DNA of 35,951 nucleotides from a virus (Duplodnaviria; Heunggongvirae; Uroviricota; Caudoviricetes): IMG/VR virus record IMGVR_UViG_2711768050_000003; one strand, written 5' to 3'. Below are positions 7,285 to 10,628 of this stretch, in pieces; the first letter of the stretch is position 1, and every line of letters starts with the position of its first letter. Below the pieces are notes generated by a model. The model did no database searches. It was not told the origin of the DNA and saw only the letters and a program-made list of their open reading frames with translations. The translations under genes were made by a program, and so were the position numbers.

Positions 7285-7959
7285 TTAGGCTTTGATTTTG
7301 TATCTTCTTGGTTTTCCTGAGAAAATCACTGTACCAATTATAGAGCAATTACCGTTGATCTTAATGTAAGGCTCAGGCCAGTTTGGGTTTAACGCTTTGA
7401 GATAACGCTGTGTCCCATCTTCTATCAACCTTTTGAAGGTGGTTTCGCCTGTATCGTGCATCAATGCAATAACGTCGTCACCGTGGCAGGCAGGTACTTC
7501 AGGATCGACAAAAATCATGTCTCCCGGGCGGTACTCATCAATCATTGAATCACCTATCACCCGCAAGATATAAGTCATTTCCCCACAGGGTACAGGGCAG
7601 GGATACGTTTCTGCTGTGCTCAAATCAACCTCAGAATATCCAACTTCTTTCCATGCTCCGGCCTGTACCCATGATATGACAGGGACTAATGTGATTTGTT
7701 TATTAGTGATTGAAACATCAGGTTTTTTTGTGATGTTCGTTGTCTGGTGTTCTTGATCGAGCCATCCGACAGGCAGGTCGAAACATTTTTCGATGTGTCG
7801 TGCCATGCTGTCACCGATATTTTTAGTAGCACCATCTCCCATAAACCTGCTGGTCTGGGTTGGCTCGCGATCAATCATAGTGGCAAAGGAAGAATTCCCG
7901 CCAACACCATCTCTCAGTTTTCTGGCGTTAGACCGCCGGATGTCATGGATTGTTTTCAT
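7285..7959 (-). CDS. cI: CI-like repressor (HTH plus S24 LexA-like autopeptidase domain)
   Basis: 224 aa; C-terminal domain with GDSM (Ser) and FKRL (Lys) dyad; divergent from the cro-like gene across an operator-rich intergenic region. Confidence 0.85.
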   Translation of the reverse strand: MKTIHDIRRSNARKLRDGVGGNSSFATMIDREPTQTSRFMGDGATKNIGDSMARHIEKCFDLPVGWLDQEHQTTNITKKPDVSITNKQITLVPVISWVQAGAWKEVGYSEVDLSTAETYPCPVPCGEMTYILRVIGDSMIDEYRPGDMIFVDPEVPACHGDDVIALMHDTGETTFKRLIEDGTQRYLKALNPNWPEPYIKINGNCSIIGTVIFSGKPRRYKIKA

Positions 7960-7974
7960 AACGAAATTAAAACC

Positions 7975-8044
7975 CTTGTACCGTTAAGGTACAAGTATCT
8001 TGAAGGTTCATTTCAATCATGTAATATGTACACCGGAGGTACAT
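7975..8044. promoter_or_regulatory. OR/PR/PRM-like immunity switch region
   Basis: Perfect palindrome CTTGTACC-GTTAA-GGTACAAG (7975..7995); second GTAC-centred site TGTACACCGGAGGTACA (8027..8043); rightward promoter -35 TTGAAG (8000..8005), 16-nt spacer, -10 TAATAT (8022..8027). Confidence 0.5.
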
Positions 8045-8049
8045 ATTGT

Positions 8050-8250
8050 ATGAAAGCGTATTGGGACTCTTTAACCAAAGAACAGCAGGGCGAGTTGGCC
8101 GGAAAAGTTGGCTCAACACCTGGCTACTTACGGCTGGTTTTCAATGGCTATAAAAAAGCCAGTTTTGTGCTGGCTAAAAAACTTGAGCAATGCACGTCAG
8201 GTGCAATTACGAAATCTGACTTAAGACCGGATATCTATCCGAAAGATTAG
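8050..8250 (+). CDS. cro: Cro-like repressor (YdaS/Cro family HTH)
   Basis: 66 aa from the ATG at 8050 with GGAGG RBS; divergent from cI; resembles YdaS-type Cro proteins. Confidence 0.65.
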   Translation: MKAYWDSLTKEQQGELAGKVGSTPGYLRLVFNGYKKASFVLAKKLEQCTSGAITKSDLRPDIYPKD

Positions 8251-8281
8251 CAGAACACTTTCAATTTTTAACCACAGAACG

Positions 8282-8851
8282 ATGAGGCTAACCGTGGGTA
8301 AGCATCACTGGAAAATAGAAAAACAGCCTGAGTGGTACGTGAAAGCTGTCAGAAAAACTATCGCGGCGTTGCCGGGTGGTTACGCTGAAGCGGCTGACTG
8401 GCTCGATGTAACAGAAAACGCTTTATTCAACCGCCTTCGTGCAGATGGCGATCAGATTTTCCCGCTGGGATGGGCAATGGTTTTACAGCGTGCTGGTGGC
8501 ACTCACTTCATTGCTGATGCTGTGGCGCAGTCTGCAAATGGCGTCTTTGTGTCTCTTCCTGACGTCGAGGATGTGGACAACGCCGATATCAACCAACGCC
8601 TGCTGGAAGTCATTGAACAGATCGGCAGTTATTCAAAACAGATTCGTTCAGCAATCGAAGACGGTGTAGTGGAACCGTATGAGAAGACAGCAATTAACGA
8701 CGAGCTGTATCTCTCAATTTCGAAGCTGCAGGAGCATGCAGCACTTGTCTACAAAATTTTTTGCATTTCAGAAAGTAATGACGCCCGCGAGTGTGCAGCT
8801 CCGGGCGTCGTGGCGTCGATTGCTTCTGGTTGTGGAGAAACTAACGCATGA
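8282..8851 (+). CDS. CII-like / YdaT-type early regulatory protein
   Basis: 189 aa in the position between cro and the replication gene occupied by cII-like regulators in lambdoid prophages; family assignment from memory only. Confidence 0.4.
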
Positions 8852-9186
8852 ACAGTTTAACAACACACTACCGTCGCTCGCAACTGATTGCGCTTCCTGT
8901 ACCGGGTGGAAAAGCGAAGGTGGAATATTGCTATGCAGTGAATGTACCAGGTGACAGGGAAATTGTAACCCACAGCTTTGCAGAGTGGGCTGTGGGTGAT
9001 TTCAACCGGCAGAAGGAGACAGTCCTTTGCGACAAGTTAACCGCTGGTTCAAAGATCACTACGGAGTGCCCGTCAGAGTCATTCGTTGGGAGCCGGAAAC
9101 ACAACGGGTTATCTACCTCCGCGAAGGTTATGAGCATGAATGCTTCAGTCCGCTCGAACAGTTTCGTCGTAAATTCAGGGAAATAG
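8848..9186 (+). CDS. hypothetical protein (possibly only the first ~60 codons are real)
   Basis: 112-aa ORF with ATGA overlap to the upstream gene; the C-terminal half is Ser-rich and low-complexity and overlaps a better-looking frame. Confidence 0.3.
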
Positions 9187-9206
9187 AGGTCGGTCATGAG
9201 CACTAA
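9027..9206 (+). CDS. small hypothetical protein with TTG start, missed by the ORF track
   Basis: AGGAG (9014..9018), 8-nt spacer, TTG at 9027; 59 codons ([40 protein letters not shown]...) ending 11 nt into the replication gene; no in-frame ATG. Confidence 0.35.
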
Positions 9207-10137
9207 ATTAACCGGCTATGTATGGGATGGTTGCGCTGCATCAGGCATGAAGTTATCCAGCGTGGCAATTATGGCCCGCCTGGCTGATTTCAGTAATGAC
9301 GAAGGTGTGTGCTGGCCATCAATTGAAACCATTGCCCGCCAGATTGGCGCGGGGATGAGTACCGTCAGAACGGCTATCGCACGGCTGGAAGCTGAAGGCT
9401 GGTTAACGCGTAAGGCGCGTCGCCAGGGTAACCGCAATGCGTCGAATGTTTATCAGCTTAACGTTGCGAAGCTTCAGGCAGCGGCATTTTCTCAACTGTC
9501 AGATTCTGACCCGTCAAAATCTGACGCATCAAAATCTGACCCGTCAAAATTTGATGCGTCGAAATCTGGCAAAAAAGCGGGTTTTCACCCGTCAGAATCT
9601 GGCGGGGATCCGTCAGTAAAATCAAAACATGATCCGTCAGATAAAAATACTTCTCGTCCGGACGCTTCGCAACCGGACACGCAGACGGCTGAACAGGAGT
9701 TTTTAACTCGCCATCCTGATGCGGTTGTATTCAGCCCTAAAAAGCGCCAGTGGGGAACGCAGGATGATTTGACCTGCGCACAGTGGCTCTGGAAAAAAAT
9801 CATCGCCCTGTACGAGCAGGCCGCCGAATGTGACGGCGAGGTGGTTCGTCCCAAAGAACCGAACTGGACAGCCTGGGCAAACGAAATTCGCCTGATGTGT
9901 GTGCAGGATGGTCGTACTCACAAACAAATCTGCGAGATGTACAGCCGCGTCAGCCGCGATCCGTTCTGGTGCCGTAACGTGCTCAGCCCGTCGAAGCTGC
10001 GGGAAAAATGGGATGAGCTTTCCCTGCGCTTATCGCCGTCCGTCAGCACGCACACAGAAAAACGCGAAGACCCGTACTTCAAATCCAGTTACGACAACGT
10101 GGACTACAGCCAGATCCCGGCAGGATTCAGGGGGTGA
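9196..10137 (+). CDS. replication initiation protein (N-terminal HTH, internal iteron region, DnaT-like C-terminus)
   Basis: 313 aa; N-terminal HTH (IETIARQIGAGMSTVRTAIARLEAEGWL); gene body contains tandem 15-bp iterons as in lambda O. Confidence 0.65.
   Translation: MSTKLTGYVWDGCAASGMKLSSVAIMARLADFSNDEGVCWPSIETIARQIGAGMSTVRTAIARLEAEGWLTRKARRQGNRNASNVYQLNVAKLQAAAFSQLSDSDPSKSDASKSDPSKFDASKSGKKAGFHPSESGGDPSVKSKHDPSDKNTSRPDASQPDTQTAEQEFLTRHPDAVVFSPKKRQWGTQDDLTCAQWLWKKIIALYEQAAECDGEVVRPKEPNWTAWANEIRLMCVQDGRTHKQICEMYSRVSRDPFWCRNVLSPSKLREKWDELSLRLSPSVSTHTEKREDPYFKSSYDNVDYSQIPAGFRG
9505..9650 (+). repeat. Origin-like iteron array inside the replication gene
   Basis: Tandem 15-bp units TCTGACCCGTCAAAA, TCTGACGCATCAAAA, TCTGACCCGTCAAAA, TTTGATGCGTCGAAA (9505..9564), then degenerate CCGTCAG copies and an A-rich tract. 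Confidence 0.6.
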
Positions 10138-10139
10138 TC

Positions 10140-10628
10140 ATGAGTCTGTTAAATGACGTTCATAAATTCATTGAAGCCCATCCGGGGTGTACTTCCGGAG
10201 ACATTGCGGATGCTTTTGCTGGTTACTCACGGCAGCGCGTTCTGCAGTCAGCAAGCAAGTTACGTCAGAGTGGGCGTGTGGCTCACCGTTGTGAAGGGGA
10301 TACACGCAGACATTTCCCGCGCCTGACTGAGAGAGCGCAGGAGCCGGAACCACAACCAGTTCGTGAAACCAGACCTGCGCGCAATTTCTATGTCGGCACT
10401 AACGATCCCCGGGTGATTTTGTGCCTGACCCGCCAGGCGGAAGAACTGGAGTCAAGGGGCTTATACCGTCGTGCTGCAACCGTGTGGATGGCGGCATTCC
10501 GTGAAAGCCACTCCCAGCCAGAACGAAACAATTTTCTGGCGCGTCGTGAGCGGTGCTTACGGAAAAGCAGCAAGCGCGCTGCATCGGGTGAAGAGTGGTA
10601 TCTGTCAGGGAATTACGTGGGGGCTTAA
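10140..10628 (+). CDS. PerC/ANR-family-like transcriptional regulator (tentative)
   Basis: Start at the ATG at 10140 after AGGGGG; C-terminal region resembles the PerC-type motif. Confidence 0.35.
   Translation: MSLLNDVHKFIEAHPGCTSGDIADAFAGYSRQRVLQSASKLRQSGRVAHRCEGDTRRHFPRLTERAQEPEPQPVRETRPARNFYVGTNDPRVILCLTRQAEELESRGLYRRAATVWMAAFRESHSQPERNNFLARRERCLRKSSKRAASGEEWYLSGNYVGA

Follow-up and report, generated by a model that had tools for sequence, protein, structure and literature searches.

Two overlapping reading frames maintained by selection at the ymfM locus of e14-type prophages: probable dual coding of YmfM and a DUF4222 protein

Introduction

Pairs of phage genes that overlap out of frame are known, e.g., Rz/Rz1 of lambda and A/B and D/E of phiX174. 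Here, we analysed an overlap of this kind in a stretch of 35,951 nucleotides (nt) of Caudoviricetes DNA (IMG/VR record IMGVR_UViG_2711768050_000003), which we name the window. At positions 8848-9206, the gene ymfM, an open reading frame (ORF) of 112 amino acids (aa) that we call the long frame, shares 160 nt (9027-9186) with an ORF of 59 codons that lies in its -1 frame and encodes a DUF4222 protein. The locus has what characterises a dual-coding pair, i.e., two frames with a long shared stretch, an inner Shine-Dalgarno sequence (SD) with its start codon, and signs of selection on both frames. As in Rz/Rz1, A/B and D/E, the overlap is extensive, both genes lie on the same strand, the inner gene carries an SD and an independent start codon, and evolution has retained the two frames. 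Unlike in pairs of the Rz/Rz1 type, DUF4222 extends 20 nt beyond the stop of ymfM, into the next gene, and is therefore embedded only in part; the overprinted sequence of the outer gene is unconstrained and seems to be selected for openness and stop position only, and the pair has no functional relation to lysis.

Two other classes of systems are close to this locus. In translationally coupled operons, stop and start codons overlap, as in the ATGA junctions of lambdoid early operons. The locus resembles these operons in the ATGA shared by ymfL and ymfM, and in the position of the ymfM stop on the SD of the replication gene. It differs from them in that coupling would here need an ORF that crosses another complete gene in a different frame. 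Genes expressed by programmed -1 frameshifting include dnaX, orfAB of the IS3 family and G/GT of lambda. The locus has in common with them a downstream domain in the -1 frame and a nearby SD-like element, but it has no conserved slippery heptamer or structure, the downstream domain has its own conserved start, and the zero frame runs on for 52 codons.

Both ORFs correspond to described families or genes. The locus is the same as that of ymfM/sfiC in the e14 prophage of Escherichia coli K-12, and the 112-aa ORF is YmfM: a segment of 651 nt is 100% identical to strain LD91-1 and 99.7% identical to e14 of K-12 MG1655, and the flanking genes are those of K-12 (ymfL - ymfM - replication gene), which places the ORF at the orthologous position. 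The region is the early-right operon of a lambdoid prophage of E. coli of the e14/SfII type, and matches to this prophage module were found in 2,685 of 5,426 complete genomes. The 59-aa product belongs to Pfam PF13973 (PHROG 1343): it matches the family above threshold and over the full length, and it is free-standing, at about 60 aa, as in other enterobacterial prophages. It shows no difference at the sequence level from this family, which has no assigned function. What is new about DUF4222 is that it systematically overlaps ymfM and is paired with the gene encoding the N-terminal domain of YmfM (N-domain). The locus is a clean example of dual coding on one strand, with good statistical support, in a prophage module that is very common in E. 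coli.

Results and Discussion

The small gene in the -1 frame encodes a conserved DUF4222 protein

We gathered 265 loci, corresponding to 223 unique segments of 440 nt, from E. coli, Shigella, Citrobacter, Enterobacter, Kosakonia, Klebsiella/Raoultella, Atlantibacter, Buttiauxella, Silvania and others. The same two-frame layout is present in the viable phages SfII, Kati and mEp390. Substitution events were inferred by parsimony on a neighbour-joining (NJ) tree. The test within the lineage using a TTG start codon drew on near-identical E. coli alleles from a viral scan.

The original prediction for this locus, made from the letters of the window, described a 59-codon ORF starting at TTG 9027, preceded by AGGAG at a spacing of 8 nt and ending 11 nt inside the replication gene. 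Direct reading confirmed these and all other features given for 8848-9206. The ORF ends at TAA 9204-9206, hence the 11 nt that it shares with the replication gene. Its frame is -1 relative to the long frame (9027 is 0 modulo 3, 8848 is 1 modulo 3). Upstream of the TTG, the DUF4222 frame is open for just nine codons, up to a stop at 8997-8999.

The 59-aa product matched PF13973 over profile positions 3-52 of 53 with an E-value of 8.6e-19 and a score of 67.3 bits (cut-off 27), and phrog_1343 with an E-value of 2.1e-34. We found homologues in 139 clusters across Enterobacteriaceae (Escherichia, Salmonella, Klebsiella, Enterobacter, Citrobacter, Kosakonia, Atlantibacter, Kluyvera, Pluralibacter and others). 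They are free-standing proteins, mostly of 59-70 aa, and distant members have 57-78 aa. Judged by the profile match and the homologues taken together, the assignment to DUF4222 is far beyond chance. RefSeq, using the Prokaryotic Genome Annotation Pipeline (PGAP), has a coding sequence at exactly 9027-9206, WP_001250269.1, "DUF4222 domain-containing protein", in LD91-1, K-12 and O157:H7. The suggestion that a small gene starting with TTG had been missed was therefore right about the gene, which is real, and too general about the omission, which concerns just the annotations that keep the long ORF.

The start codon of DUF4222 is at a constant position in all 223 unique segments (143 ATG, 61 TTG and 19 GTG), and TTG is the state of the e14 lineage of E. 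coli and Shigella. An SD-like purine run precedes it in 220 of the 223. Substitutions fell 130, 73 and 465 times on the first, second and third codon positions of DUF4222, i.e., 465 of 668 on the third, and 467 events were synonymous in this frame against 201 that were non-synonymous. Within the TTG lineage of E. coli, 25 of the 26 events were synonymous. Amino acids of DUF4222 are 70-98% conserved across genera while the other frame drifts. By this pattern of substitutions the ORF is a real gene under strong purifying selection. An AlphaFold2 model made with an alignment of 51 sequences shows a five-stranded small beta-barrel with a short helix, with a predicted local distance difference test (pLDDT) of 82, and the product is therefore predicted to be a small beta-barrel protein.

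On the minus strand, an antisense ORF of 90 aa (8931-9203) lies opposite DUF4222. The antisense frame is poor in stops in general (mean of 0.58 per sequence), and this ORF looks like a by-product of the coding constraint on the sense strand.

The long frame is kept open across DUF4222

The 112-aa ORF was originally described as having a plausible N-terminal half and a low-complexity tail, and this holds. The first ~52 residues of YmfM are conserved among homologues and the tail diverges. In the model of YmfM, the N-domain has three strands and two helices (pLDDT 55-73), and residues 68-112 are predicted to be disordered (pLDDT <50). In the part of ymfM that does not overlap DUF4222 (8848-9026), the events at long-frame positions 1/2/3 numbered 7/3/23, 89/66/182 and 129/156/283 in three sequence groups, a pattern by which the N-terminal ~58 codons of ymfM evolve as coding sequence. 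The start of the long frame is also conserved, since it overlaps the upstream stop in ATGA in 219 of 223 segments. The tail behaves in the opposite way to DUF4222: in the e14 lineage we counted 25 non-synonymous events in it and one synonymous event. Finding the 112-aa frame conserved throughout and the -1 frame not conserved would have spoken against the small gene; the comparison gave the reverse.

The tail is nevertheless always open. In all 223 segments, the long frame has no stop before the one at +160 from the DUF4222 start (+163 or +166 where there are in-frame insertions). When the codons of DUF4222 were shuffled among synonyms, with the protein fixed, the long frame remained open with a probability of 0.03-0.13. 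Stops in this frame, which is +1 relative to DUF4222, arise where the codon after a Val, Leu or Ile codon ending with A or G begins with A. Where this risk exists, codons of the three amino acids that end with A or G were used in none of 545 cases, against 240 of 654 at safe positions. The choice of codon even covaries with the next codon within single columns of the alignment. In column 16, Val is encoded by GTC in 47 of 47 cases before A, and by GTG or GTA in 28 of 108 otherwise; columns 14 and 19 show the same covariation. We expected 25.7 synonymous and 8.4 non-synonymous events creating a stop and observed none (P about 7e-12 for the synonymous class).

Two general explanations for the open frame were rejected. 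Avoidance of stop trinucleotides as such does not fit the control provided by the +2 frame, which holds a mean of 4.2 stops per sequence, and a general bias towards codons ending with T or C does not fit the use of codons ending with A or G wherever these are safe. The tail thus seems to be selected for its openness and the position of its stop and not for its sequence, which is an unusual signature. Judged by both halves, selection maintains the long frame as well, and the answer to the question of which of the two ORFs is the gene is both.

One codon preference has another character. In column 43 of DUF4222 (9153-9155 in the window), Leu before Glu is encoded by CTC or CTT in every case; CTG is never used, and it would create no stop in the long frame there. 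This pattern reflects either an extra constraint or simply ancestry.

The long frame ends next to the start of the replication gene

The stop of the long frame is as conserved as its openness. In 155 of 155 cases it is made of a rare xTA codon of DUF4222 (ATA, TTA, CTA or GTA) and a following A or G, across replacements among Ile, Leu and Val. In 218 of 221 cases, the spacing between this stop and the ATG of the downstream gene is exactly 9 nt, and ymfM and the downstream gene are in the same frame wherever the latter was found. The downstream proteins begin with at least five unrelated types of N-termini (MSTKL, MSLLM, MSRIF, MNTLI and MSSKL). The overlap of the DUF4222 stop with the downstream gene is variable, from 11 to 50 nt. 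In the window, TAG 9184-9186 overlaps GAGG 9186-9189, and ATG 9196 lies 9 nt past the stop, which is the geometry of translational coupling. From this geometry, we infer that the tail probably serves the translational coupling of ymfM to the replication gene.

Just the TAG and three codons, in the same frame, separate ymfM from the replication gene. Readthrough or loss of the stop would fuse the two proteins.

Distant relatives encode the two proteins in separate adjacent genes

In a distant clade of DUF4222 loci (L270-L310), the homologue of the YmfM N-domain is encoded by a separate gene of 58-98 aa in the other frame. This gene stops 8-11 nt into DUF4222, and each of the two has its own start and stop; in L272, for example, they are at 1302-1511 (N-domain homologue) and 1501-1683 (DUF4222). 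DUF4222 in turn overlaps the replication gene by 4 nt at its end, in a junction of the ATGA type; each of the three junctions in this clade is a short overlap. The frame relationship here (+2) differs from that of the e14 clade, and most lineages have interruptions in the +1 frame inside DUF4222. By its gene order and homologies, this arrangement is the non-embedded form of the two-gene module. The N-domain gene and the DUF4222 gene are, on this comparison, two genes that travel together and not one gene that was broken.

In L270-L281 and L289, a hydrophobic ORF of 55 aa (MKIQIILIGCIWISAVFVFV...) occupies the +1 frame inside DUF4222, from +7 to +175 relative to its start. It is probably there by chance, because sister lineages carry +1-frame stops at +4 or +109.

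A dual-coding module is the best explanation of the locus

We consider it likely that the locus is a dual-coding module in which YmfM and DUF4222 are made from one early transcript, the tail of YmfM being an extension for coupling. Sequence comparison shows selection on both frames, conservation of the two starts and of the long-frame stop, and a pairing of the N-domain with DUF4222 that is kept in two architectures. In vivo translation of the two products, their biochemical roles and the function in coupling follow from these patterns by inference, and the scheme proposed here should be taken in this sense. A single early rightward transcript would be translated as a coupled chain; we propose one transcript, in line with which a scan found no promoter-like site inside 7900-9400 at its threshold. 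Ribosomes ending ymfL would restart at ATG 8848, within ATGA, and make the moderately conserved N-domain of ~58 aa. They would then continue for 52 codons through DUF4222 in its +1 frame, and terminate on the SD of the replication gene, next to its ATG, which would promote translation of this gene. Other ribosomes would initiate independently at AAGGAG-N8-TTG and make DUF4222. In terms of evolution, the N-domain gene and the DUF4222 gene would be the older two-gene module, and the ORF of the N-domain would have been extended over DUF4222 in the e14 clade. The replication gene would become uncoupled if the tail acquired a premature stop, and YmfM would be fused to the initiator if the final stop were lost. 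The selection on the openness of the tail and on its stop could be due to either, because uncoupling and fusion (given the shared frame) would each explain it. If coupling across an embedded gene is true, the locus would be a compact example of how phages wire the order of expression into overlapping frames.

Several points weigh against this interpretation. Coupling could also come from ribosomes translating the DUF4222 frame, as their termination site is near the replication start too. The Ser/Thr-rich tail may have a function in its composition, as an alternative to coupling. The model of YmfM as a whole is of low confidence (mean pLDDT 53). Our literature search found no ribosome profiling (Ribo-seq) or proteomic record of either product, and the lytic genes of e14 are repressed in culture. 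The counts of events are approximate, as recombination among mosaic phages can inflate those made with an NJ tree and parsimony, and the IMG/VR sequences are not fully independent. A three-fold inflation of the event counts would still leave P at about 3e-4.

If only DUF4222 were real, the 112-aa ORF, or its tail, would be an untranslated chance ORF kept in annotations for its length. The long frame indeed has no match to a Pfam or NCBIfam family and is not called by PGAP, and its tail is of low complexity, changes almost always non-synonymously (25:1) and is predicted to be disordered. The N-terminal 58 codons, however, show coding-type substitutions, have conserved homologues and exist as a separate gene in the distant clade. 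The coupling of the long frame to ymfL by ATGA in 219 of 223 segments, the absence of stops where about 26-34 were expected, the covariation of codons and the preservation of the final stop through rare codons make this reading improbable, all the more since stops do occur in the +1 frame where it is not used, i.e., in the distant clade. The converse, that only YmfM is real and that the TTG ORF arose by chance behind a fortuitous SD, is the least credible of all the readings. It agrees with the GenBank records of phages, which annotate just the long frame, and with a filamentation phenotype published under the name of ymfM, and it is refuted by the Pfam match (E-value of 8.6e-19), by the 465 of 668 events at third positions of DUF4222, by the 25:1 ratio of synonymous to non-synonymous events and by the confident fold.

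The two remaining readings join the frames into one protein. Programmed -1 frameshifting would produce a fusion of the N-domain and DUF4222 of about 118 aa, in the manner of dnaX or of the phage tail chaperones G/GT. The -1 relationship of the frames fits this, AAGGAG precedes the junction and is of the SD-like type by which frameshifting in E. coli can be stimulated, an A-site-only A_AAG motif is found at +25 in 137 of 223 segments, and a few database proteins (P0031, P0053, P0060 and P0065) are in-frame fusions of this type. Yet, no canonical X XXY YYZ heptamer is conserved in the permissible zone: the window has none, and lineage-specific ones occur at +22 in 2, at +97 in 10 and at +145 in 88 of the 223 segments. 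In 40 of the 223, a stop in the DUF4222 frame, 0-1 codons ahead of the start, prevents anything upstream from being joined to it, and the start codon itself is conserved in all. We found no significant stimulatory structure in the RNA at the junction (8975-9075, z-score of the minimum free energy of -0.40); a weak hairpin of 6 bp pairing AAGGA with UCCUU is specific to the e14 type. The zero frame is open for 52 codons past any shift site, an openness that frameshifting does not need, and the adjacent-gene clade has a +2 relationship with a separate stop and start. As for the four fusions, each needs one or two indels and comes from short-read, Logan or ENA assemblies. Frameshifting is thus very unlikely. 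Even less probable is that a recent frameshift mutation or a sequencing indel split one gene and left a pseudogene. The related prophage e14 is defective in K-12, where its replication gene is truncated, and rare in-frame fusion variants exist. The identical two-frame layout in 223 unique sequences from many genera and in the viable phages named above, with strong purifying selection on both parts and no relaxation (25 synonymous to 1 non-synonymous event for DUF4222 in E. coli), refutes the pseudogene. The original prediction had offered a single ancestral gene with a frameshift as one of its two options, and this option fails on the same data: the small gene always has its own start, the two genes are separate in the distant clade, and the homologues of both frames, when compared, are not one continuous protein, apart from sporadic fusions of the indel type.

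In six proteins (P0031, P0053, P0060, P0065, P0090 and P0212), the N-domain or upstream sequence is fused in frame to DUF4222, with one or two indels each. These sporadic fusions are likely to be assembly errors or rare mutants.

Implications for YmfM as the division inhibitor SfiC

The gene ymfM is credited in the literature with encoding SfiC, an SOS-inducible inhibitor of division that had long been sought, and it is used as a tool to make filamentous E. coli. Expression of the ymfM "open reading frame" from pBAD24 abolishes Z rings and causes filamentation, and deletion of ymfM in a sulA mutant lowers SOS filamentation, and ymfM was identified as sfiC, as reported by Ansari et al. (bioRxiv 10.1101/2020.11.19.390815). 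The ORF was treated in that study as one gene, with expression of the whole ORF and deletion of the whole gene, and the consulted parts of its text describe no frame-specific mutation, tag or immunoblot. A 2018 expression-library screen gave an enriched region of 1.8 kb only. A clone of 8848-9186, if used, holds the SD, the TTG and codons 1-53 of DUF4222, which is the whole Pfam domain. The published constructs also carry, or remove, this part of DUF4222; hence, the block of cell division that is published for ymfM and attributed to the 112-aa protein could come from either product. We tentatively suggest, as a less likely variant of the dual-coding module, that the inhibitor known as YmfM/SfiC is really the DUF4222 beta-barrel, or its complex with the YmfM N-domain, and that the tail is a "transit-only" extension, which carries ribosomes to the replication start and whose peptide is unconstrained.

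Our literature search found no paper linking ymfM to an internal or overlapping gene, and DUF4222 appeared in gene lists only. In the supplementary tables of start-site-mapping studies, where these were consulted, ymfM is not mentioned. GenBank records of phages (Kati, SfII, mEp390) annotate the long frame only, which is also the frame that the gene name in K-12 stands for, and RefSeq annotates DUF4222 only. Each pipeline keeps one frame, so every genome inspected lacks one real gene in its annotation.

Gene context

The features of the region are listed in Table 1.

Table 1. Features of the early-right operon around ymfM and DUF4222 (positions in the window).
Feature	Position	Strand	Evidence
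LexA-like repressor	7285-7959	minus	
Cro-like gene	between the LexA-like repressor and ymfL in gene order		
ymfL, CII-like regulator	8282-8851	plus	Pfam Phage_CP76, E-value 1.1e-12; PHROG 101, CII-like activator; RefSeq "protein YmfL"
ymfM long frame, 112 aa, N-domain and overprinted tail	8848-9186	plus	phrog_1170; 99.7% DNA identity to K-12 e14
ymfM non-overlapping part, N-terminal domain of ~58-60 aa	8848-9026	plus	third-position excess; homologues; phrog_20047
SD of DUF4222, AAGGAG (AGGAG at 9014-9018)	9013-9018	plus	8 nt upstream of TTG, read directly
DUF4222 gene, 59 aa, TTG start, -1 frame of ymfM	9027-9206	plus	Pfam PF13973; WP_001250269.1
Dual-coding stretch, 52 codons of the ymfM tail over DUF4222 codons 1-53	9028-9183	plus	stop avoidance
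Long-frame stop TAG (DUF4222 Ile53 ATA and next G)	9184-9186	plus	conserved xTA + A/G
GAGG (9186-9189), 6-nt spacer and ATG 9196 of the replication gene	9186-9198	plus	read directly
O-like replication initiator, 313 aa	9196-10137	plus	phrog_391, E-value 1.3e-135; Pfam HTH_36; 15-nt iterons
PerC-like gene	10134-10628		Pfam PerC, E-value 7.7e-09; RefSeq yfdN

The stop of ymfL (TGA 8849-8851) shares ATGA with the ATG of ymfM at 8848. At the other end of the region, the GTG start of the gene of the PerC family overlaps the stop of the initiator, which extends the chain of stop/start overlaps. At 9484-9606, the O-like replication gene contains five to six iterons of 15 nt (TCAAAATCTGACCCG-like), which encode a repetitive SDPSKSDASKSDPSKFDASKS stretch. 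Judging by their position in the initiator gene, the iterons look like an embedded origin of the lambda style.

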